From Prevotella sp. (GTDB lineage Bacteria; Bacteroidota; Bacteroidia; Bacteroidales; Bacteroidaceae), in contig JAIJMN010000001.1 in assembly GCA_022735715.1 (NCBI GenBank), positions 1 through 51,732 of the forward strand: a stretch of 51,732 nucleotides of DNA. The letters are read 5' to 3'. Below the pieces are notes generated by a model. The model did not search any database. It worked only from the letters and a program-made list of their open reading frames with translations, and was not told where the DNA came from. Numbering within the stretch: the stretch's first letter is position 1; each line of letters begins with the position of its first letter. Positions 8,574 through 49,088 of this stretch are shown here, in pieces. The position numbers and the translations under genes were made by a program.

Positions 8574-9344
8574 TCAGAACAGCGTGAGCTGCGCTTGCTC
8601 CTGCTTAATGCGCTTACAAGCCTCGTCGTAATACTCCTTGTTGAGTTCAAAGCCGATGAAGTTGCGCTTCTCGCGAATGGCTGCAATGGCGGTGGTGCCG
8701 CTGCCCATACAGTTGTCCAAGATGGTGTCGCCCTCGTTGGAGTAGGTGCGAATGAGGTACTGAATAAGAGCTACGGGCTTTTGAGTGGGGTGCATATCAA
8801 GATTCTTTTCTTTGTCGAAGAACAATACAGATATAGGATATTTCTCAGTTGATGCTTCTTTTGAGTAAGTCTCAATATTATAGTTTCCATAACAGACATT
8901 ACCCTTTGCTTTTCCGTGTTTATGCCCTCGTGAGTGAGTGGGGAAACCTTGTCTCATCTGCGGATTGTATGTAGGTAGCGCACGATAGAACACAGCAATA
9001 TCCTCATGGATCCGCATAGGCATTCGCTTCGCATTGAGAAATCCTGTTGGTCTGTCTTTTTGCCAAATTAGATTATATCGCCATGTGTCAGGTTCTGCCA
9101 TCATTAACTGTGCCGTAAACATTCCTTGACCGAAGAGAATAATAGGAGCGTTAGTTTTTGCTATTCGCCAGTATTCTTTGAATAGAGGCTCCATCGGGAT
9201 AATGTTATCCCATCGTGCCTTTTCATTGCCTTTGTTCAGAACTTCATACGGCAAATCGCACACAATGCAATCCACGCTCCCATCCGGAATCCTTTTCATT
9301 CCTTCGAGGCAGTCTTCATTATATATCTTATTCAGTTCAATCAT
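8574..9344 (-). CDS. Beta-class N4-C/N6-A DNA methyltransferase
   Basis: Motif IV DLPY near the N-terminus, HPTQKP, motif I DNCMGSGTT near the C-terminus. Confidence 0.9.
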   Translation of the reverse strand: MIELNKIYNEDCLEGMKRIPDGSVDCIVCDLPYEVLNKGNEKARWDNIIPMEPLFKEYWRIAKTNAPIILFGQGMFTAQLMMAEPDTWRYNLIWQKDRPTGFLNAKRMPMRIHEDIAVFYRALPTYNPQMRQGFPTHSRGHKHGKAKGNVCYGNYNIETYSKEASTEKYPISVLFFDKEKNLDMHPTQKPVALIQYLIRTYSNEGDTILDNCMGSGTTAIAAIREKRNFIGFELNKEYYDEACKRIKQEQAQLTLF

Positions 9345-14028: not shown

Positions 14029-14193
14029 TTACAGCTCCACCAATACCTTAATCTCTTGGTTCCCTCCCCCTTGTGTATGCAGCGTGGGCGATATTCCCTT
14101 TGCGGAATACACACGGCGGCTCTGCTCAAACATGCGGTCGTAGGGTGTGGTGAGCAGGAGACCGAGGCAGAGGGTGTGAATGGGGCTATTCAT
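14029..14193 (-). CDS. Stand-alone C5-MTase TRD-like peptide T13 (54 aa)
   Basis: MNSPIHTLCLG...FEQSRRVYSAKGISPTLHTQGGGNQEIKVLVEL; RVYS..GISPTL.T..GG..E.K pattern of phage MTase variable regions; ATG overlaps the upstream stop. Confidence 0.75.
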   Translation of the reverse strand: MNSPIHTLCLGLLLTTPYDRMFEQSRRVYSAKGISPTLHTQGGGNQEIKVLVEL

Positions 14194-15004
14194 CGGTTGC
14201 CATTCTTTCGTGTGCGTCATGTTCCTTTTTTTTGTCGTAAAGATAAGCACACACCAAGAAATCCATGTCGAACACATTCGCTTTCATAAAGTGAGGGCAG
14301 GTGCGACACTCTTCTTCTCCAATCTTTCGCTTGGTCTTTTGGAGGGATTTATATTTATACTTACATTCCTGTCCCATTTCAATGGGCTCGGCTGACTTAA
14401 AGCGATTTATGAACGCCTCTTGCTCGTCTCTTTTCTTTCGCGAATCCTCTTTGAGACTTTCGATTGTCTTAAACCTTTCGTTCAGTTCATTATACATCCG
14501 TTCTAAGTTTCTGTTTTCAGCCGCAAGTATCTTGTTGTCCTTTTCCAACGCCTCGCATTTATCCAAGGCTTCAGTCAGTTCACCAAGAGTGTAGCCTTCT
14601 GTATTAGGTTCATGTTTTTCCTTTCCGCGCAACTGGCGTACCACGTTGTTGTAGTCGTCCGTGAGCTGATGCACGCGCTCCGTCATCATCATGTTCTCTG
14701 CCTTCAAGTCGGCGATGATATAGGCCAATACCTCCATACGGTTGTTTTTAGGCAGATTTACATACTTGCATACTGCCAGATTTCTCTCCATATACTTGCG
14801 CTGTTCGTCGGTGGCAGGGACATAGGCTTCGGCTGTGTGTGTACCTATGCGATAGGGTGGAGGTACGGTCTTGAATATATTTTGCATGTCGGTGTATGCC
14901 GAACATTTAACCACTCCGTCTTCATCTACTCGAGCCACCTTTACCAACAAATTTCGCTCTTTTTCGTAAAGGATGTCACCAGGGTTAATTTCTTCTGTTT
15001 TCAT
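14186..15004 (-). CDS. Hypothetical coiled-coil protein with C-terminal Cys cluster
   Basis: 272-aa ORF. Confidence 0.7.
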   Translation of the reverse strand: MKTEEINPGDILYEKERNLLVKVARVDEDGVVKCSAYTDMQNIFKTVPPPYRIGTHTAEAYVPATDEQRKYMERNLAVCKYVNLPKNNRMEVLAYIIADLKAENMMMTERVHQLTDDYNNVVRQLRGKEKHEPNTEGYTLGELTEALDKCEALEKDNKILAAENRNLERMYNELNERFKTIESLKEDSRKKRDEQEAFINRFKSAEPIEMGQECKYKYKSLQKTKRKIGEEECRTCPHFMKANVFDMDFLVCAYLYDKKKEHDAHERMATDE

Positions 15005-15030
15005 TGTCTCTATTGTTTTACGGTTTTTTT

Positions 15031-15198
15031 TTAATTATTCAACATACTCATTAATGCCGCAGCCCTTCGCTTGTCGGTAAATCCTTTGATGTTTACCCAC
15101 TTGCCGAAGATACAGTCTCCGACATATTTCTGAACCATATATACGGCCACAGGGATGCAACCTGTATAGACCTCCATGGAAATTATTCTTAATTTCAT
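15031..15198 (-). CDS. Small hypothetical protein (55 aa)
   Basis: Manual translation MKLRIISMEVYTGCIPVAVYMVQKYVGDCIFGKWVNIKGF...; fills the operon gap. Confidence 0.6.
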   Translation of the reverse strand: MKLRIISMEVYTGCIPVAVYMVQKYVGDCIFGKWVNIKGFTDKRRAAALMSMLNN

Positions 15199-15201
15199 CT
15201 C

Positions 15202-15381
15202 TTATTCAAATTTATATACTATATGCGGTGTAGTGTTGCCCAGTCCGTCGCGAGGGTCGGCAATACCTCTTCCGACCATTGTCGTCACGGCATTGGCTAT
15301 CCGCTTGCGCGGTCGACTCTTTACGAAGCCCTTGCCGTCCTTGCCGCTGCGCACCCAGCCGATGTAATACTTGTCAGTCAT
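15202..15381 (-). CDS. TRD-like peptide T12 (59 aa)
   Basis: MTDKYYIGWVRSGKDGKGFVKSRPRKRIANAVTTMVGRGIADPRDGLGNTTPHIVYKFE. Confidence 0.7.
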   Translation of the reverse strand: MTDKYYIGWVRSGKDGKGFVKSRPRKRIANAVTTMVGRGIADPRDGLGNTTPHIVYKFE

Positions 15382-15517
15382 ACTCTATCAATACAATGGT
15401 GTGCTGTCCGTGCTCGTCGTAGAGTCCTGCCCATCCGTCGTAGCGTGCGGACAGGGCGGTGGAGTACCCCCGACGTGGGCAGAGCTGGGATGTGCGTTGC
15501 ACAAAAGGAATTTTCAT
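15374..15517 (-). CDS. TRD-like peptide T11 (47 aa)
   Basis: MKIPFVQRTSQLCPRRGYSTALSARYDGWAGLYDEHGQHTIVLIEYD; TAATG overlap upstream, IEYD/ATG overlap downstream. Confidence 0.7.
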   Translation of the reverse strand: MKIPFVQRTSQLCPRRGYSTALSARYDGWAGLYDEHGQHTIVLIEYD

Positions 15518-15711
15518 TACCAACAATCAGGATTAAGATCTCTGCCATTAACACCTTCAATATCAATGGCGTTTTTGTAACTGTAAAAACAAACATCTAA
15601 AATCTCGTCGTCATTGACTGTTACTTCCAATTCGCCATGTTCTTTACGCAAAAGCTCAAGGCGGTTTATAAGTTCGTTTATATTCATATTCTTTTCTTTA
15701 TAGATATTCAA
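15517..15711 (-). CDS. Small hypothetical protein
   Basis: MNINELINRLELLRKEHGELEV..., a common small phage protein pattern; not TRD-like. Confidence 0.6.
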   Translation of the reverse strand: MNIYKEKNMNINELINRLELLRKEHGELEVTVNDDEILDVCFYSYKNAIDIEGVNGRDLNPDCW

Positions 15712-15850
15712 TATATGCCATATTATCCTTGCCTACTGACGTAAGCGTGTTGGTTGTCCCCCCCCCGTTTATCTCCATGCGCTGAATGTTGGGCAATCGT
15801 TCACCATTCAAAGGGCGGCCACGAAAGGCTGCAATTCTTATTCGTAGCAT
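15698..15850 (-). CDS. TRD-like peptide T10 (50 aa, G9 tract in frame)
   Basis: MLRIRIAAFRGRPLNGERLPNIQRMEINGGGTTNTLTSVGKDNMAYIEYL; RGR...QRLE...TNTLTSV.KDN pattern. Confidence 0.8.
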   Translation of the reverse strand: MLRIRIAAFRGRPLNGERLPNIQRMEINGGGTTNTLTSVGKDNMAYIEYL

Positions 15851-16014
15851 ATTGCTATCAGATTGTCTGTAGTGAGAAACGTTCCTATACATTGCATCAT
15901 ACGTCCCTGCCGCAGATGCCATTCCTTATCGCGAAAATCGTTAGTGCCGGTTCTGTGGCGCACGGCTTTTGCGTGCTCGGTTCGGGCTTCGTGTATCAGA
16001 TGAATGTTACGCAT
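15838..16014 (-). CDS. TRD-like peptide T9 (58 aa)
   Basis: MRNIHLIHEARTEHAKAVRHRTGTNDFRDKEWHLRQGRMMQCIGTFLTTDNLIAICYE; paralogous to T8. Confidence 0.7.
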   Translation of the reverse strand: MRNIHLIHEARTEHAKAVRHRTGTNDFRDKEWHLRQGRMMQCIGTFLTTDNLIAICYE

Positions 16015-16178
16015 AGGAGGTTGTCTTTGGTTGCTGTGCTGATGGTGTTGCTCCACGGCCACGGACTGGGACGATGCAGCTTGTCTTGGTATTTACACCC
16101 TCCCCGGTCTCCATGCTCACGGCGGAAGGCTTTTGCTTCCTCGGTGCGGTAGTGGACGAGGACGGAACGGTCAATCAT
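15996..16178 (-). CDS. TRD-like peptide T8 (60 aa)
   Basis: RTEEAKAFRR...SNTISTATKDNLL pattern. Confidence 0.75.
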   Translation of the reverse strand: MIDRSVLVHYRTEEAKAFRREHGDRGGCKYQDKLHRPSPWPWSNTISTATKDNLLCVTFI

Positions 16179-16323
16179 ACTCTATCAATATTTTCGGTTT
16201 ATCCACGTCGTGCCCCTTACCTCCCCCAGCAATACACAGGGCTATGCCGTGTGGTGACACAATGATGCCGTTCTGCGAGGGGCTGTAAGTGCCGAGGATG
16301 ATGGGGCGAGGGTTGTTATTCAT
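16171..16323 (-). CDS. TRD-like peptide T7 (50 aa)
   Basis: MNNNPRPIILGTYSPSQNGIIVSPHGIALCIAGGGKGHDVDKPKILIEYD. Confidence 0.75.
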   Translation of the reverse strand: MNNNPRPIILGTYSPSQNGIIVSPHGIALCIAGGGKGHDVDKPKILIEYD

Positions 16324-16462
16324 ATATCACGATTACGCCAGTGGCTTTAAAGTTGGCTCCATCAAGCGAAAGGTCAAGCACATTCGCTACTCCCATTTTG
16401 AAATATTGGGATTTGATAGTGCGAGACGTGCCGTCGGATTCGGTATTGAAAGGGAGTGTCAT
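16316..16462 (-). CDS. TRD-like peptide T6 (48 aa)
   Basis: MTLPFNTESDGTSRTIKSQYFKMGVANVLDLSLDGANFKATGVIVIYE; ATGA overlap with the MTase stop. Confidence 0.8.
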   Translation of the reverse strand: MTLPFNTESDGTSRTIKSQYFKMGVANVLDLSLDGANFKATGVIVIYE

Positions 16463-17766
16463 TTTTTCCTCTTCATATTCTCCTTAAACAATTCCTCAAA
16501 ACCTTCGCAAGGGAAAGTATGGCATTCGCTGAAACTTGCGAAATCGCTGTTTAATACATCTCGCTCGTTCTCGATACAATCGTGCAGTTCGTCCAACTCC
16601 ATATTCCACCCGTTGAGAGTGTTCATGCGCAGCGTGAGCCATGTCTTGAGGAACATTGCCGCCTCGTGTGTCGGTGGCAGATCAAACTGAAGGAATAAGG
16701 CATTGTCAGAATCGTTCGCCTTAAGGAACTTGCTCACGGCATCGTCCTTGAGGAAATAGCGGTCGGGCGCTTCTTCTTCGAGCACGTCTTCCAGTCGGGT
16801 GCGCAGCTCGAAAGGTTCGGGAAACTGATAGTCGAAGGCTACGTCCTGGCGCATGGAGATGCAGAACACTCTGTCGCGGTTCTGCGGCACACCGTAGTTC
16901 TTGGCGTTGAGTCGCGCCCAACGGCTCACATAGCCGAGCGACGAGAGTTTGTCGAGCCATTTCTGGAAGTCGGGCATGAACTTCTGGCTAACCAATGCCG
17001 CCACGTTCTCCTGCAAGAGATATTTGGGGCGCAGCACCTCCACGGCATCTGCCACACGCCACAGCAGGGCACTTCGGGTGTCGCTGCCCTCCTGAAGACC
17101 CATCTGCTTGCCGGCTTGCGAGATGTCCTGACAGGGAGAGGAATAGGTGAAGAGGTCCACTTCGCGTCCTTGGAGCGAGCTTTTTACCTCGTGCCAGTCT
17201 ATTTTGGTGATGTCGCCCAAGGCGCAGTCGGCAAACTGAGGGAAGACAAGGTTGTGCATCTGACAGGCGTATTTGTCAATGTCGCTCCATCCCTTGCACG
17301 TCCAACGGAAGTCGGGATGCCACTCGCGTAGCACGTCGGCTGCCATGAGCTGCGAGTCGTAGCCGGAGAACGTGGTGAGGAATATCTTCTCCTCGTTCTT
17401 GTTGGCTGCGGTGGTAGGCAGGTCGGGCAACGTGTCTTCGAGGTCGTCGAAGAGCGAAAGTTGTTCGCCTGGGCGAGGCTTAGGTGGTGCGGGGTAGAAA
17501 AGCTGCTCGTAGATGTGGGCCAACACGTCCACCACAATGCTATTTCCTGCTTGCTTGTACTGTTGTGAGGCAGATATGGCCATGTCTTCGGGTTTGCCCT
17601 TGCCCTTCCAGTCGAGCAGTCGTTCGGCTGCTTGGGCATTGCTGCTCTGCATCGTGCCGATTACGTTGTCGCGAACGCCCATCAGTCGGAAACACTCCTT
17701 GGGCGTGAGCTTGCGGATGGCATAACTCTTGATAGTGCGGTCGGTGAAGTTGAGTTTTGTGATCAT
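16459..17766 (-). CDS. Circularly permuted DNA (cytosine-5) methyltransferase lacking an obvious TRD
   Basis: N-terminal motif IX (IRKLTPKECFRLMG) and X (QYKQAGNSIVVDVL), then I (FSGYD), IV (SPCQDIS), VI (ENV), VIII (QNRDRVF). Start placed at ATG 17766 (MITKLNF). Confidence 0.9.
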   Translation of the reverse strand: MITKLNFTDRTIKSYAIRKLTPKECFRLMGVRDNVIGTMQSSNAQAAERLLDWKGKGKPEDMAISASQQYKQAGNSIVVDVLAHIYEQLFYPAPPKPRPGEQLSLFDDLEDTLPDLPTTAANKNEEKIFLTTFSGYDSQLMAADVLREWHPDFRWTCKGWSDIDKYACQMHNLVFPQFADCALGDITKIDWHEVKSSLQGREVDLFTYSSPCQDISQAGKQMGLQEGSDTRSALLWRVADAVEVLRPKYLLQENVAALVSQKFMPDFQKWLDKLSSLGYVSRWARLNAKNYGVPQNRDRVFCISMRQDVAFDYQFPEPFELRTRLEDVLEEEAPDRYFLKDDAVSKFLKANDSDNALFLQFDLPPTHEAAMFLKTWLTLRMNTLNGWNMELDELHDCIENERDVLNSDFASFSECHTFPCEGFEELFKENMKRKK

Positions 17767-17789
17767 ATAGTTGCAGTTTTTATTCGTAT

Positions 17790-18026
17790 TCAATCATAAC
17801 GCCAGTCCTCGGGTTTTATAAAACCCAACTCCTTCTGTAACTTCTCAAGAGATTCTATATTCTGTCGTCTACATTTTACAGCCTTAGCGTTACTGAATCC
17901 TTTGTACCAATGTTTGAAGTCTTCCCAAGCACTGTTTCCGTTTGTCACATTTACCTTTTTATCCATGATTATATTGTTGTTTTGTTTAATGGGTTGGATG
18001 TGGCAATCAATCTTGATGTTATTCAT
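17790..18026 (-). CDS. Small hypothetical protein, apparently inserted into a TRD cassette
   Basis: Likely start MDKK near 17966; a TRD-type tail TGVMIEYE* persists in another frame at about 17780-17806. Confidence 0.5.
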   Translation of the reverse strand: MNNIKIDCHIQPIKQNNNIIMDKKVNVTNGNSAWEDFKHWYKGFSNAKAVKCRRQNIESLEKLQKELGFIKPEDWRYD

Positions 18027-18161
18027 ATTCTATCAAAATTGCCCCCCAGTTGTGCCATAATCGCCCAGCAGAAGTGTGCGTGAGCCGAACTTGTAATATC
18101 CGGCAAGGACGGTCGGGGCGCAATGGTCGCGGTCGGTGTTTAAGAGTTGGATGTTAGTCAT
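18019..18161 (-). pseudogene. TRD-like peptide T5, out of frame at a G6 tract (phase OFF?)
   Basis: MTNIQLLNTDRDHCAPTVLAGYYKFGSRTLLLGDYGTTGG then QF*; one extra G at 18042-18047 restores AILIEYE*. Confidence 0.75.
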
Positions 18162-18285
18162 ATTCTTCAATCAAAAATACATTTTGCTGAAACGAGTTGA
18201 TTGTTATGGTTGGGCAAACGTCTGTGCCTAATTTACCTCCATCGTTATTGCCACGAGGATATTGGTAGAAGTCAAGATTAGTCAT
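18154..18285 (-). CDS. TRD-like peptide T4 (43 aa)
   Basis: MTNLDFYQYPRGNNDGGKLGTDVCPTITINSFQQNVFLIEEYD; PRG.N.GG...CPTIT.NS pattern. Confidence 0.8.
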   Translation of the reverse strand: MTNLDFYQYPRGNNDGGKLGTDVCPTITINSFQQNVFLIEEYD

Positions 18286-18286
18286 A

Positions 18287-18580
18287 TCAATCCTTTTCAA
18301 CCTCCAAATCCCAGTTCTTTCCATCGTGGGAAGAATAGACGTTATAGGGATATTCGCAACAACTGATAGCCACACGCATTTCATTCAAAATGTCTCTTGT
18401 ATAGAAACATCTCCTCATAAGATAAGCCAAAGCCTTAAACTGGTCTTGAGTAAGAAAAACCTCCTGGTCGCCGCAAGTGATACCTACGTTGTCAGTAATG
18501 GTAGAATAGAACAGCTTTACGTCTTCATCCTTTCCTGTGTCCTCGTTCTTTACGATTATCTTTTTTGTATTGTAACTCAT
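18287..18580 (-). CDS. Hypothetical protein
   Basis: 97-aa ORF in operon, not TRD-like. Confidence 0.65.
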   Translation of the reverse strand: MSYNTKKIIVKNEDTGKDEDVKLFYSTITDNVGITCGDQEVFLTQDQFKALAYLMRRCFYTRDILNEMRVAISCCEYPYNVYSSHDGKNWDLEVEKD

Positions 18581-18599
18581 AATTCATTTCTCCTTTTAT

Positions 18600-18917
18600 T
18601 TATAATTCAACAAACACGCAGATTCCGCCACTTGCAGCGGTCAGTGCGTTTACGAGCTTACCCCCCCCGACTGTGCGACTGCGCCTCAGAGCCGAGGACG
18701 GATAACTTAGGTCGGCGGCTCCTGGACAGGGACAGTCGGTGTAGCCCAGCTCGGTGGCTTGGCGTATGCGAAGGAACGTCTCGCCGTCTACGTCCACCAA
18801 CTGAAGGAACGGTCGGTCGGTGGTGGAGTAGATGCGATAGAGTGAGCCGTCAGGATAGCGTCCATACAGTTTGCCGTCCTTGCGGATAATGCCGCGCTTG
18901 TAGTAAGGGTCAGTCAT
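18600..18917 (-). CDS. TRD-like protein T3 (105 aa, G8 tract in frame)
   Basis: IRQATELGY...ADLSYPSSALRRSRTVGGGKLVNALT pattern of phage C5-MTase variable regions. Confidence 0.8.
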   Translation of the reverse strand: MTDPYYKRGIIRKDGKLYGRYPDGSLYRIYSTTDRPFLQLVDVDGETFLRIRQATELGYTDCPCPGAADLSYPSSALRRSRTVGGGKLVNALTAASGGICVFVEL

Positions 18918-19044
18918 ATTCAATCATTAATCTCCATCCGTGACGAGGTGCAGGATTACCCCATTGTTGAGTTACGGTTCCGATGCAGGTTCCGCTCCAA
19001 TGGATGCGCTGATGAAAATCGTCGAATGGATGCTGCTTAATCAT
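18910..19044 (-). CDS. TRD-like peptide T2 (44 aa)
   Basis: MIKQHPFDDFHQRIHWSGTCIGTVTQQWGNPAPRHGWRLMIEYD. Confidence 0.7.
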   Translation of the reverse strand: MIKQHPFDDFHQRIHWSGTCIGTVTQQWGNPAPRHGWRLMIEYD

Positions 19045-19169
19045 ATTCAATCATTATACAGTGTGGCATTTGTAGTCCGTGGCTCGAAGGGTGGGCGAGA
19101 AGTTTTCCCCCATCCTCGCCATTCGAGCCGATGGCTAACGGGATTCACGGAAATGTAGATGTGGGTCAT
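19037..19169 (-). pseudogene. TRD-like peptide T1 with two single-base deletions
   Basis: Reconstructed MTHIYISVNPVSHRLEWRGWG/ENFSPTLRATDYKC/PHCIMIEYD across three frames; breaks at G5 (19107-19111) and CC (19065-19066). Confidence 0.7.
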
Positions 19170-33120: not shown

Positions 33121-33510
33121 CTAACGCTCGTCACCATCACCGGCAATGACATTTCGTTGCTGGCGCGAAGCAAGTTTTGCGAGGTTTTCTTCTGCCACTT
33201 CTTCAAGCGTAACACCCATAACCTTGGCGAGTCCGGCAGTCTGCCAGAGAATGTCGCCGATTTCAGAGAGCATAAGATGACGTTCCTCGTCGCTGACGTT
33301 CCACACCTGCGTATGCAGGATCTTGCCTTCCTCGTCGCGTTGTGTTGTGGTGATATGCAGTTTGCCCTTACGCATGTGCTTGCCGGCTTTGCTTGCAAAC
33401 TCGCCGACCTCGCCTACGAGATTGGCAAGCATATAGAAGAGATTGTCACTCTCAGGCATACAAGTACTCATTGCCTTGTCCTGATATTCGTTTAATGTTA
33501 AATTTGCCAT
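33121..33510 (-). CDS. MazG-like NTP pyrophosphohydrolase
   Basis: LVGEVGEF...EIGDILW...EENLAKLASRQQRNVIAGDGDER; start MANLTLNEYQ. Confidence 0.9.
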   Translation of the reverse strand: MANLTLNEYQDKAMSTCMPESDNLFYMLANLVGEVGEFASKAGKHMRKGKLHITTTQRDEEGKILHTQVWNVSDEERHLMLSEIGDILWQTAGLAKVMGVTLEEVAEENLAKLASRQQRNVIAGDGDER

Positions 33511-33535
33511 GATATATATATGTTTATATTGATGA

Positions 33536-34432
33536 TTAAATTTTAAACACTGCGAAGTACTGGCGCATACGCTCAAGGATGATGTTACGTATCTTCTCGC
33601 CAATAATCTTTGCATTGGGATGCGGTGTGCCCGTCTTACCATGATAGCGCAAGTCAAGAATATGCTTCCAGTCAGCAATAGTGTATGTATATGCCACAAC
33701 GGTATAGGTGTCAAGAGGCAGAACACCTCGTGCATCCTCCGGCTTCAATCCAGACTTCAGAAGTAGGTTGTAGCCCCACTCGCATACCCGGCATACAAAG
33801 CCGTACACCATGCGCTGCCAACGAGTGCCTTCATCGTACCAATGCGGAAGCGCTATCTGTACGCCTCCTTTCTTCTCCAGATTGCAATAGCGTGTGCTCT
33901 GCTCGGCTATGCTATTAGGCGATGTGCGGTTGAGTTCGCGCGATGTGCTTATCTGCGTGGTTACTACCAGCGTCATGCGGATAATGGAGAATGCCTCCTC
34001 ACACTCGTATTTCAGAGCCTTCTCGATAAACTCGCCTTCGCTTACACCATACGGGCTAAGCGCATCCATCAGGTTCTTGTTCTCAAGCAAGAACTGCATA
34101 TTAGTGCTGATCCATACCTTATGGTTCTTTGTGGCATAGTCGATGTAAGGCGAAGCATTCAGATACGCCCAGATGTAATTAGGGAGACCCTTTTCGTTGG
34201 GCATGAAAAAGTAGACGGTGCCGTGGCGATACATCGAGCGATGTCCGCTTTCCCAGAAGCCCTTGCAGCGTTCTTCGTCGCGCTTCTGAATGAAGGCTTC
34301 CACCTCCTCTTCGGTCATTCCTTCTTCGGGCTGCTTGCCCTTAGCCTTGTAGCATATTCTGCCCACTCTTGCTATGTGTTGTGCAAGAGAGGTCTGCTGC
34401 CACCATTCCACTCGTGGCTCTATGTATTTCAT
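33536..34432 (-). CDS. thyX: FAD-dependent thymidylate synthase (divergent motif)
   Basis: GRICY, GHRSMYRH, SRELNR..SIAEQSTRYCN, PEDARGVLP, LDLR...HP. Confidence 0.85.
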   Translation of the reverse strand: MKYIEPRVEWWQQTSLAQHIARVGRICYKAKGKQPEEGMTEEEVEAFIQKRDEERCKGFWESGHRSMYRHGTVYFFMPNEKGLPNYIWAYLNASPYIDYATKNHKVWISTNMQFLLENKNLMDALSPYGVSEGEFIEKALKYECEEAFSIIRMTLVVTTQISTSRELNRTSPNSIAEQSTRYCNLEKKGGVQIALPHWYDEGTRWQRMVYGFVCRVCEWGYNLLLKSGLKPEDARGVLPLDTYTVVAYTYTIADWKHILDLRYHGKTGTPHPNAKIIGEKIRNIILERMRQYFAVFKI

Positions 34433-34489
34433 TGCTTATGAATTTTAGTTTATTATTTAATAGATAGTGCATTTTCATATTCTCTATGC

Positions 34490-34987
34490 TTACACAATCA
34501 TGTATCTCACGCGCTGCACTTCTTCCAGCAAGTCGCTTAGCGAATCGTTGTTGAAGATTACCGTGTTGAAGAACGACAACGGCAGATACTTGCGTTCCTT
34601 GTCGCGGTCTATGCGTTCCTGCGACACCCCTCGGCGTAGTCGGGTTTCCTCTTGTGCCGACACACAAATAGAGAACATCTCTACGTTGGGGAACCTCTTG
34701 CGCAAGGCTCTCAGTCCGTCTTCGTCAATGACGTAAATAGCCTTGTCGCCCACCTGCTCTACAGTAGTCCAATACTCATAGCCGCCATATTGCGTGTAAG
34801 CCAACATATTGTCGTGTGGCACATCACACTTCTCCACAAAGTGGTGTTCCACACCATCAATCTCGCCTTCACGCTTCGGACGGGTGGTATAAGAACATAT
34901 CACTTTATAGCCGCCAAAGTCGGAAAGCATCTGAGCCACAGTGTCCTTTCCTGCACCACTCGGACCGGTAATTGTTATCAGTTTCAT
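34490..34987 (-). CDS. gmk: Guanylate kinase-like protein
   Basis: GPSGAGKDT P-loop, SYTTRPKREGEIDGVEHHF; start at ATG 34987. Confidence 0.85.
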   Translation of the reverse strand: MKLITITGPSGAGKDTVAQMLSDFGGYKVICSYTTRPKREGEIDGVEHHFVEKCDVPHDNMLAYTQYGGYEYWTTVEQVGDKAIYVIDEDGLRALRKRFPNVEMFSICVSAQEETRLRRGVSQERIDRDKERKYLPLSFFNTVIFNNDSLSDLLEEVQRVRYMIV

Positions 34988-34999
34988 AGAGTATAGAAA

Positions 35000-35304
35000 A
35001 CGAGGTGAGCCACATTCTTCATACGGCACTTCTGTGATAATGATGGCGATAGTGATAGCCATCGCAGTCGAGTGATAGTGATAGCGAAATAGAAGATGTT
35101 GACTGCGGAGTGATTTTTTGCGCAATACTTGCTCTATCCAGTTGAGCTACATTTCTCTTGAAAGAAAAGATAGGATTCGAACCTATAACCTCGTGAGACA
35201 CGTTTCGAAAAACGCATGATTCACTAAAAGAAAACTCCGTATGCTATCCGTGTGAGAGTCAGTTTCACGGTGCAAGACCTTCAGTCTGACCTTACCCACC
35301 TCGT
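35000..35304 (-). ncRNA. Structured ncRNA with permuted tRNA-like (YrlA-like) domain
   Basis: 5'/3' ends pair (ACGAGGTGGGT/GCTCACCTCGT); nested stems; T-arm, loop-closed acceptor stem, D-arm in that order at 35186-35131. Confidence 0.65.
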
Positions 35305-47138: not shown

Positions 47139-47293
47139 ACGGAAACAAAATAGAAGTATATATTGCCTGTAGGTGATAGGCATCACTTGATGAAGATAAT
47201 AGGTATTGTTGACATACAACAATTGGTATTGGACAAAATGGCTTTTCTGAAAAAAATATAGTGCATAAAAACTATAAAAATACTATAAAAAAT

Positions 47294-48145
47294 ATGTTAA
47301 ACGAACAACTACAGAAAAAGGTAAAACAGTCGATAAAACTCCTGCAGAGTGTGCAGAAACGACACGACGGCGAGATAGAGATAGCCTATTCGGGCGGTAA
47401 GGACTCCGACGTGATCCTTCAGCTGGCGAAAGAGGCAGGCATCAAGTATCGGGCCATATACAAGAATACGACCATCGACCCGCCAGGCACGTTGGGGCAC
47501 GTCAGGGAAATGGGCGTGGAGACACTGCGGGCCAAGACTTCCTTCTTTCATCTCGTGGCGCAGAAAGGATTTCCATCTCGCTTTAGTCGTTTCTGTTGTG
47601 AAAAACTGAAGGAATATAAGGTGCTCGACAAAAGTGTTCTCGGCGTGCGCAAGGCTGAGAGCAGAAAAAGAAACGAAAGATACGACGATCCGACAGCGTG
47701 CCGATACTACGGAGCGAAAAAAGAGGAAAATCACGTAGAACATATCTATCCTATTCTGGAATGGACCGATGAGGACGTGCGCGACTTCATCATAAACAGA
47801 AAGTTGAAACTCGCACCCATTTATTACAATTCGGGGGGGCAAATCGACGTGTCGAAACGTCTTGGCTGTATGTGCTGCCCTCTCGCCTCAAGGCGCAAGC
47901 GCATTATCGAGTTTCAGAAATATCCCAAGATAGCAAAGGCTTATCTCCGTGCGGGGCAACGATTTATGGAAACGCATCCTGACAGCAAGGCGTGCCAGAG
48001 ATACGACAACGTTTACGAATGGTTCACTCGCGACGTATTTTACAGCTCCGATGCAGATTGGAACAAGGTAAGCACAGGACTGTTCGGTAAACCGGACTTC
48101 AAGAAATTCTTGGAGGACAAGTTCGGTATTGACTTGACATTATAA
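47294..48145 (+). CDS. PAPS-reductase-family (PP-loop, Fe-S) protein
   Basis: AYSGGKDS, RFCCEKLKE, GVRKAES..R, RLGCMCCP. Confidence 0.9.
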   Translation: MLNEQLQKKVKQSIKLLQSVQKRHDGEIEIAYSGGKDSDVILQLAKEAGIKYRAIYKNTTIDPPGTLGHVREMGVETLRAKTSFFHLVAQKGFPSRFSRFCCEKLKEYKVLDKSVLGVRKAESRKRNERYDDPTACRYYGAKKEENHVEHIYPILEWTDEDVRDFIINRKLKLAPIYYNSGGQIDVSKRLGCMCCPLASRRKRIIEFQKYPKIAKAYLRAGQRFMETHPDSKACQRYDNVYEWFTRDVFYSSDADWNKVSTGLFGKPDFKKFLEDKFGIDLTL

Positions 48146-48479: not shown

Positions 48480-49088
48480 ATGAATAACAACATAAAAAGA
48501 AAGGACTGGGTAGGCGGCTCGGCCGCTGTCTTCAAGACATTGGGCGCAAGCAACCATACGGACGCAAATAGACAGCGTGAGGATTATTACGCCACAGAAC
48601 CGAGGGCGACGGAATGGCTGTGCAAGCTGGAGCGGTTCGAGGGCAGGATCTTGGAACCTTCATGTGGCGAGGGTCACATGAGTAGGGTGTTGGAGGCAGC
48701 AGGGTATGAGGTGGTGAGCCGCGACCTTGTGGATAGAGGTTATGGCGAGGTAGCCGACTTCCTCTCTATTGATAACTTGGCGTGGGATGGAAACATTGTC
48801 ACCAATCCGCCCTACAAATTCGCGCAGCAGTTTGTGGAGAAGGCTCTGAGCATCATCCCCGAAGGAAAGAAGGTGGCGATGTTCCTGAAGCTGACTTTCC
48901 TCGAAGGCAAGGCCCGACGCGCTCTCTTCCGTTCTACCCCCCCCATTCGTGTTTGGGTGAGCTCATCACGACTAAAATGCGCTATGAACGGCGATTTCGA
49001 TGCTTACGGCAGCAGCGCAGCGGCTTACGCATGGTTCGTGTGGGAGAAAGGATATAAAGGCGAGACAACTGTAAAATGGTTTAACTGA
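48480..49088 (+). CDS. Small N6-adenine DNA methyltransferase
   Basis: DYYAT, LEPSCGEG (motif I), IVTNPPY (motif IV), YAWFVW. Confidence 0.85.
   Translation: MNNNIKRKDWVGGSAAVFKTLGASNHTDANRQREDYYATEPRATEWLCKLERFEGRILEPSCGEGHMSRVLEAAGYEVVSRDLVDRGYGEVADFLSIDNLAWDGNIVTNPPYKFAQQFVEKALSIIPEGKKVAMFLKLTFLEGKARRALFRSTPPIRVWVSSSRLKCAMNGDFDAYGSSAAAYAWFVWEKGYKGETTVKWFN

Follow-up and report, generated by a model that had tools for sequence, protein, structure and literature searches.

How can a C5-cytosine DNA methyltransferase that has no target recognition domain (TRD) select the sequences it methylates, and what are the many very small open reading frames (ORFs) that surround its gene? This question is raised by a locus at positions 14,029 to 19,169 of contig JAIJMN010000001.1 (assembly GCA_022735715.1, labelled Prevotella sp.). 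The window analysed in this study is the whole 51.7-kb contig (51,732 nt; C315), part of a fragmented 2.7-Mb metagenome-assembled genome (MAG), and its DNA is that of a phage, with PHROG matches to a virion structural protein, a head maturation protease and a 2064-aa tape measure protein. In an initial annotation, made from the letters of the sequence, the locus was read as a split enzyme whose TRDs are separate gene products that dock in trans on one core. We likewise consider it likely that the locus encodes a disassembled multispecific C5-cytosine methyltransferase, in which TRD subunits act in trans on a single catalytic core; the parts of the initial interpretation that lend themselves to computation were all supported.

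The ORF at 16459-17793(-) matches the C5-methyltransferase profile Pfam PF00145 in two stretches (E 1.8e-50, 172.7 bits against a cut-off of 22). The start conserved in relatives is the ATG at 17766, and the protein begins with MITKLNF in nearly all of 80 related viral contigs, across which the core is 69-95% identical. In enzymes of this class, motif IV (PCQ) holds the nucleophilic Cys, motif VI reads ENV and motif VIII QxRxR, and motifs I and X are the cofactor motifs. The core reads SSPCQD, QENV, QNRDR and QAGNS, with a motif-I variant FSGYDS, so that both catalytic and cofactor motifs accompany the profile match; P211, C212, E253, N254, V255, Q295, R297 and R299 are invariant in 27 relatives. 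In BLASTP comparisons with M.H2I, the multispecific enzyme of Bacillus phage H2, core residues 159-349 align to M.H2I 31-241 (E 5e-25) and residues 15-91 to M.H2I 439-495 (E 2e-9), and no core segment matches M.H2I 242-438, the part that bears the TRDs. The order of these alignments, together with the unmatched part, shows that the core is circularly permuted and lacks a TRD. The full set of catalytic motifs and the missing TRD had been recognised in the initial annotation; the permutation is a feature absent from it. The canonical order is I-X, and the same chain holds the TRD between VIII and IX; the core instead has motifs IX-X first and continues with I-VIII, ~50 aa from the start of the variable region and, at its end, ~80 aa of helical tail. 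Residues ~380-435 (window 16459-16630) fall into several unrelated sequence types among cores that are otherwise 70-95% identical, unlike the first helix of the tail, which is invariant.

Thirteen TRD-like mini-genes share the strand of the core, five upstream and eight downstream of it, each with an ATG (Table 1). Their number and their TRD-like character had been anticipated by the initial annotation, but only 11 of them are intact in the window, two (T_18033 and T_19047) being frameshifted, and the sizes come to 42-105 aa. The motifs quoted there were largely recovered (GISPTL, CPTIT, SRTIK, SNTIST..KDN, TNTLTS..KDN and IRQAT..GY..DLSYP), with the qualification that SPTLRATDYK lies in a gene with two frame changes. 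The shared C-terminal endings IEYD, IEYE, IEYL, VIYE and VEL are present as described, the IEYE of T_18033 being out of frame in the window. Intact copies of the window proteins are frequent among the 80 loci (tblastn: T_16171 in 66, T_15996 in 59, T_18600 in 54, T_15202 in 54, T_15374 in 51). When all plus-strand ORFs of the loci were clustered and nucleotide diversity was calculated per codon position, the ratio of third-position diversity to the mean of positions 1-2 was 1.6-3.9 for TRD-like families and 2.6 for the core, and below 1 for ORFs that overlap real genes in another frame. The ratio of nonsynonymous to synonymous substitution rates (dN/dS, Nei-Gojobori) was 0.08-0.30 for 15 mini families versus 0.9-4.2 for three alternative-frame controls. 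Conservation in the own frame, in up to 71 of 81 loci, and purifying selection therefore make the mini-ORFs more than chance, and on these comparative grounds we take them to be real genes.

The way in which the mini-genes follow each other is uniform. Junctions to the next ORF of at least 30 aa were counted for 977 ORFs of the TRD-family and core clusters, a set that includes some alternative-frame ORFs. The ATG of the following ORF reaches 8 nt into the stop region in 385 of the 977 and 4 nt into it in 78. Due to the 8-nt overlap, the sequence TATGAWTRA specifies both the common ending Y-[DE]-stop of one gene and the Met of the following one. No terminator-like site was found on the minus strand between 13500 and 20000, and separate translation of the mini-genes appears plausible. 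Stop-codon recoding was considered as a cause of the short ORFs and rejected: the frames differ, both TGA and TAA ends occur, and long phage genes are open under code 11.

Homology links the mini-proteins to the TRDs of methyltransferases. Residues 51-81 of T_14029 match methyltransferase genes of four phage records (tblastn, 58-62% identity, E 4e-4 to 2e-3). One of these genes encodes M.H2I, in which residues 322-353 are covered, on one of three TRD-like repeats and with its closing strand included; a local hidden Markov model (HMM) comparison of T_14029 with M.H2I gave 38.6 bits. For T_18600, a profile was built together with 30 relatives and run against 1.84 billion representative proteins, of which 314 matched at E<=1e-3; among the 43 listed matches of at least 200 aa, 39 carry PF00145. 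Full-length enzymes are matched in the variable region, at ~residues 190-310, on the N-terminal side of the segment that corresponds to motifs IX-X. Local HMMs of 25 families were also run against 54 long proteins, with reversed copies as controls (top domain score 6.1 bits). At least two different mini-family modules stand in tandem in 42 of the 54, in several of them ahead of motifs IX-X. Protein P0143, for example, has the order fam134-fam17-fam36-fam0a-fam6 followed by IX-X, and P0151 runs from motifs I-VIII into fam13-fam15-fam0a-fam6-fam7. The same modules thus exist elsewhere as in-line TRDs of long PF00145 proteins, and the proposed resemblance of the peptides to methyltransferase variable regions is borne out.

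Two further groups of long proteins came to light in these searches. P0143, P0170, P0175, P0123 and P0172 (300-470 aa) contain four to six different TRD modules and then motifs IX-X alone, without I-VIII. Judged by their domain order, they may be multi-TRD 'beta subunits' of split multispecific methyltransferases, another undescribed layout. P0108, P0160 and P0164 are C5-methyltransferases of 857-1029 aa with a fam6-like TRD and an intein (Intein_splicing, Hint, LAGLIDADG).

Docking of a mini-protein on the core was modelled for T_16171. The core (27-sequence alignment) and T_16171 (27 sequences) were predicted as a complex in three runs, next to three controls. The interface score ipSAE was 0.86, 0.87 and 0.88, versus 0.01 for the best control; the predicted local distance difference test (pLDDT) of the partner was 74 or higher, and the three runs had at least 89% of contacts in common. 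The pass mark had been calibrated on solved complexes (116 of 157 pass) and mismatched pairs (2 of 215 pass), counts that are only roughly valid here because the alignments were self-supplied. In the predicted interface, T_16171 contributes residues 42-50 (KPKILIEYD), which pair with the core strand that directly precedes motif IX (residues 13-20). T_16171 residues 21-35 touch core 294-298 (PQNRD, motif VIII), 320-329 and 365-374, the last being the conserved first helix of the tail, in which H367, A370, M371 and K374 are invariant in the 27 relatives. This predicted interface is that expected of a TRD returned to its place, and the model for this pair (ipSAE 0.87 versus 0.01) supports the idea of docking in trans. 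What the prediction indicates is that the pieces fit like a split methyltransferase, which is likeness and not binding.

The repertoire of mini-genes differs strongly between related phages. HMMs of 25 mini families were used to classify the ORFs of all loci, and in the 69 loci whose 5-kb flanks are complete the count of mini-genes is 0-17 (median 11; at least two in 68 of 69), with 64 different family combinations. This comparison of cassette content bears out that the set is expandable, as had been suggested from the single sequence. The lineage has at least 25 families, most of them confined to one side of the core; fam51, fam63, fam1b, fam66, fam6, fam7 and fam17 occur on either side, depending on the phage. 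The sole locus with none in its flanks is L071; when its complete 99-kb record was scanned with the HMMs in six frames, intact genes of fam9, fam3 and fam15 were located farther out, 5.5-9.5 kb downstream from the core. The fam6 profile found no match in the records of L070 and L071. Since relatives carry different subsets of the families, the specificity set is probably gained, lost and shuffled gene by gene. Two unusual proteins belong here as well. P0026 (89 aa) has a fam4-like N-terminal half and a fam6-like C-terminal half; it resembles a natural TRD chimera, which suggests recombination between cassettes. P0202 (179 aa) joins the first ~147 core residues (IX-X, motif I) directly to the C-terminal part of a fam9 TRD and apparently arose by deletion or recombination in a locus of this kind.

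For translation, binding, activity, specificities and an anti-restriction role we infer the following course. The mini-genes would be translated separately, via coupling of termination and reinitiation. Because its TRD is missing, the core would be unable to read DNA sequence alone. Each mini-protein would occupy the place of a covalent TRD on the core: the conserved hydrophobic strand at its C-terminus (..ILIEYD or ..VFVEL) would pair with the core strand just before motif IX, and its recognition loop would pack on motif VIII and the conserved first tail helix. Competition of the mini-proteins for this one site would give a mixed population of holoenzymes, each methylating a different short sequence on the phage genome. 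Methylation at many short motifs might then shield the phage from those restriction enzymes of its hosts that are sensitive to 5-methylcytosine (5mC). In the layout TRDs-[IX-X-I-VIII]-TRDs, the upstream TRDs adjoin motif IX and the downstream TRDs adjoin motif VIII, as in the canonical order. Potentially, the locus originated by tandem duplication of a multispecific gene and subsequent loss of the outer parts.

We lean, by a small degree, towards a fuller version of this picture. Specificity would come entirely from a library of free-standing TRDs of ~45-60 aa (at least 25 families, 11-17 genes per phage, almost every combination among relatives) that compete for one site on the permuted core; the genes would be exchanged one by one, possibly via the TATGAWTRA junction, and single specificities may switch off at G-runs. 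If this is true, a C5-methyltransferase TRD can work as an autonomous protein of ~50 aa, and no smaller subunits for sequence-specific DNA recognition would be known for a methyltransferase than these free-standing mini-TRDs. Modular TRDs, an idea derived from the Bacillus phage enzymes, would be realised in nature as a plug-in system, with which a phage re-tunes its anti-restriction methylation pattern while the enzyme stays untouched. It would also account for the ability of large gut phages to withstand the varied restriction systems of the bacteria they infect, and the gene content of an array would be a readable record of the sites that the phage protects. Because 64 natural combinations are at hand for comparison of methylomes, a rule set leading from TRD sequence to target motif might be obtained. 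The core and its mini-TRD library are also a possible toolkit for programmable or multiplexed 5mC marking.

Several observations weigh against a disassembled methyltransferase. In the searches of long proteins, fam9, fam3, fam31 and fam1a/38 had no significant similarity to known TRDs. For fam9, the search for longer homologues returned no canonical methyltransferase, only family members and the chimera P0202; its assignment as TRD-like rests on position, size and the shared C-terminal strand. The tie of fam4 to the M.H2I-like fam15 is indirect, via fam87 and fam66 (hhalign chain 72%, 56%, 63%; best non-TRD control 14%). When 19 ORFs of the region were scanned with Pfam, none of the 13 mini-proteins had a match at E<=1. 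PDB sequence searches gave no match for T_14029 and, for T_18600, three chance matches to beta-propeller proteins and no methyltransferase; tblastn of T_18600 against the phage collection had no match. As structures of single-chain C5-methyltransferases are solved and a split fold is re-joined here, the complex score may partly be the model's memory of these enzymes. The AlphaFold2 model of P0013, a natural core-TRD fusion, was too poor for use (mean pLDDT 48.7). Two of the 13 mini-genes in the window are broken, and the core might have an activity or specificity of its own via its N-terminal hairpin and tail.

This last point leads to a different explanation, in which the core has relaxed or intrinsic specificity and the mini-proteins are modulators or decoys that bind the core, host methyltransferases or restriction enzymes. 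TRD-derived peptides that are predicted to bind the core could equally inhibit it, fam9, fam3 and fam31 have no detectable similarity to functional TRDs, and the core bears a conserved tail and an N-terminal hairpin as extra parts. However, long PF00145 proteins contain the mini-gene families as TRD modules, in line and in tandem, the core has no recognisable TRD, and in the predicted docking the loop of the TRD lies next to motif VIII, the position needed for an active small domain. A dozen different inhibitors for one enzyme would also be hard to rationalise, and we regard this explanation as improbable.

Two other explanations concern the mini-ORFs themselves. They might be joined in translation, with one another or with the core, by serial programmed frameshifting or hopping at the TATGAWTRA junctions, giving one multi-TRD polypeptide like that of the classical multispecific enzymes. 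The uniform 8-nt overlap of 385 of the 977 ORFs and the existence of single-chain relatives with the same modules would fit, as would P0013 (482 aa, one member), the one database protein in which the core is joined to fam4 after a frame change in the tail. Against this, every junction has an in-frame stop and a following ATG, the usual form of termination-reinitiation, and at least 10 successive shifts would be required through arrays that are broken by non-TRD genes (g97, g78, g64, g272), flank the core on both sides and in one genome lie 5-9 kb away. With a single fusion cluster among 39 matches, joined translation seems very unlikely. Decay of a former single multispecific gene, or a store of silent recombination-donor cassettes, would account for the two frameshifted genes of the window, for truncated copies in some loci and for the homologous modules that stand in line in other proteins. 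It is extremely unlikely in view of the own-frame dN/dS, which stays at 0.08-0.30 with the N-terminal parts included, the intact copies in as many as 71 of 81 loci whose cores are 69-95% identical, and the conserved ATG of each mini-gene; moreover, a TRD 'expression site' within the core gene is absent from every locus. The earlier assumption that the mini-ORFs are not decay fragments is thus upheld, also by their ATGs, which overlap the preceding stops, and their retention in the 80 related loci.

A disassembled enzyme of this kind can be set beside several known systems. M.SPRI, M.Phi3TI and M.Rho11sI are multispecific C5-methyltransferases of Bacillus phages; the TRD units of multispecific phage enzymes are each thought to give one specificity, and their presumed role is self-protection of the phage from restriction. 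As in the M.H2I-type enzymes, one catalytic core would serve several short TRD units, and one unit of M.H2I is 58-62% identical over ~30 aa to T_14029, including the closing hydrophobic strand. Homology to a characterised multispecific enzyme was found for this one family; the matches of other families are to TRD modules in uncharacterised PF00145 proteins. Unlike the M.H2I-type units, which lie in tandem inside one polypeptide between motifs VIII and IX, every TRD is here a separate gene: the ORFs are in different frames, with their own ATG and stop, and likewise in all 80 related loci. M.H2I shows three TRD-like repeats, whereas a phage of the present lineage has 11-13 units, the lineage as a whole at least 25 families, and the core is permuted.

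M.EcoHK31I is a two-chain C5-methyltransferase. The same is described for M.AquI (PMC5944983). As in the M.AquI type, the active enzyme would be assembled from separately translated pieces that are split in the variable region. However, the M.AquI type consists of two fixed halves, alpha (I-VIII) and beta (TRD and IX-X), whereas here the TRD is freed on both sides, many alternatives exist per core, and IX-X is fused in front of I-VIII; the core holds both IX-X and I-VIII and the mini-proteins neither. A distant relative of the core in a Clostridia MAG (L087, 4899-6055; 40% identity) belongs to a locus that encodes a two-gene alpha/beta methyltransferase in canonical order, with genes for 247 aa (I-VIII) and 130 aa (one TRD and IX-X) that are 20 nt apart. 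Naturally permuted C5-methyltransferases include M.BssHII, M.Alw26I, M2.Eco31I, M.Esp3I and M2.BsaI, and their N-termini lie within the variable region (PMC5944983). On that description, these enzymes keep the TRD in the same chain. The core is like the M.BssHII type in that motifs IX-X are N-terminal to I-VIII, and unlike it in that it contains no TRD-like segment, the TRD of the M.BssHII type being retained in the chain to judge from the same text. By analogy, the delegation of sequence recognition to a separate, exchangeable subunit would also be like that to HsdS in Type I systems, which differ in their unrelated fold and enzyme class and have one S subunit per enzyme, where the present locus has a library of ~50-aa subunits. 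Type I systems contain N6-adenine or N4 methyltransferases, with two TRDs per HsdS of ~400 aa. Searches of a full-text library brought up no paper on C5-methyltransferase TRDs encoded as free-standing genes or arrays; REBASE and subscription journals lay outside their reach, so that an earlier description may exist there.

Table 1. Features of the locus and of the remaining window. Loci are counts out of 81; dN/dS after Nei-Gojobori; HMM scores in bits.
Feature	Family	Position	Strand	Length (aa)	Loci	dN/dS	Remarks
Catalytic core C5-cytosine DNA methyltransferase		16459..17766	-	435		0.13	PF00145; without TRD
T_16316	fam13	16316..16462	-	48	38	0.19	ends VIVIYE; ATG overlaps core stop (ATGA); HMM matches variable region of long methyltransferase P0151 (18, best reversed 3.5); hhalign to fam27, fam134 and fam1b at 94-96% probability
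T_16171	fam4	16171..16323	-	50	71	0.10	ends KILIEYD; most widespread mini family; hhalign to fam87 (72%) and fam66 (56%)
T_15996	fam0a	15996..16178	-	60	61	0.13	SNTISTATKDN; HMM matches 18 long proteins above reversed control, in tandem with other modules
T_15838	fam0b	15838..16014	-	58	33	0.17	ends IAICYE; paralogue of T_15996; hhalign to fam0a at 94% probability
T_15698	fam0c	15698..15850	-	50	58	0.30	TTNTLTSVGKDN; ends YIEYL; HMM matches long PF00145 proteins (<=49), adjoining fam6 modules
T_15374	fam9	15374..15517	-	47	57	0.14	YSTALSARYDGW; ends VLIEYD; TRD-like
T_15202	fam3	15202..15381	-	59	58	0.25	ANAVTT; ends HIVYKFE; TRD-like; matches to long methyltransferases weak
T_14029	fam152/15	14029..14193	-	54			GISPTLHTQGGG; ends KVLVEL; ATG overlaps g272 stop; family HMM matches 33-34 long proteins above reversed control
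T_18154	fam7	18154..18285	-	43	59	0.21	CPTITINS; ends FLIEEYD; HMM matches P0127 (20) and P0151 (14)
T_18033, disrupted	fam90	18019..18161	-	42			frame 18033-18161 ends short of AILIEYE strand
T_18600	fam6	18600..18917	-	105	59	0.11	IRQATELGY..DLSYPSS..RRSR..; ends VFVEL; largest TRD
T_18910	fam36	18910..19044	-	44	23	0.08	ends LMIEYD; HMM matches P0143 (12, reversed 0.7)
T_19047, disrupted	fam17	19037..19169	-			0.18	SPTLRATDYKC..CIMIEYD; two frame changes at short homopolymer runs; intact family in 32 loci (dN/dS of intact family); HMM matches P0143 (46)
g272, non-TRD coiled-coil ORF	family 12	14186..15004	-				41 loci; no Pfam or PHROG family above threshold
g55, not TRD-like		15031-15198
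g64, not TRD-like		15517-15711
g78, not TRD-like		17790-18026
g97, not TRD-like		18287-18580
DNA methyltransferase		8574-9344	-				PHROG phrog_67, E 1e-80
DNA methyltransferase		48480-49088	+				PHROG phrog_799, E 2e-68
Nucleotide-metabolism cluster		33121-35125	-				MazG-like pyrophosphatase, thymidylate-synthase-like protein, guanylate/dNMP kinase
PAPS-reductase-like gene		47261-48145	+

The array is interspersed with five ORFs that are not TRD-like (Table 1). The stretch 15698-16062 was considered as one frameshifted gene and rejected, as it consists of the two intact paralogues T_15838 and T_15698. In T_18033, the AILIEYE strand lies in another frame (18019-18040), past a run of six G within 18019-18045, and because the run has six G the frame stops ahead of this strand. 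The form with the strand in frame occurs in five loci (L034, L038, L042, L051 and L053), and the shifted form in five loci and the window. L034 and L038 have seven G at this run; in L042, L051 and L053 the G-run pattern was unmatched. The frame changes of T_19047 were seen by DNA alignment to the intact copy of L001, and its frameshifted N-terminal variant (family 164) recurs in eight loci. From their sequence, the out-of-frame homopolymer runs of both genes could be due to slipped-strand ON/OFF switching of single specificities, or to decay.

The source is a tailed gut phage of ~90-100 kb, and the minus strand carries nearly all genes of the window. A megablast search of the region against GenBank phages gave no match. 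The host cannot be taken from the MAG labels, which conflict among related contigs (Prevotella, Oscillibacter, Clostridium and Oscillospiraceae); binning of this phage is therefore unreliable, and an assignment on this basis was rejected. A Shine-Dalgarno-like motif precedes only four of 40 long window genes, and the leaders are A-rich; to judge from the leader sequences, this would fit translation starts of the Bacteroidota type and such a host, as a fit and not as proof of one. Apart from the C5 system, the window holds two further DNA methyltransferase genes, and the phage thus invests heavily in DNA methylation. A nucleotide-metabolism cluster and, farther along, a gene for a protein like 3'-phosphoadenosine-5'-phosphosulfate (PAPS) reductase may point to additional modification of DNA bases.

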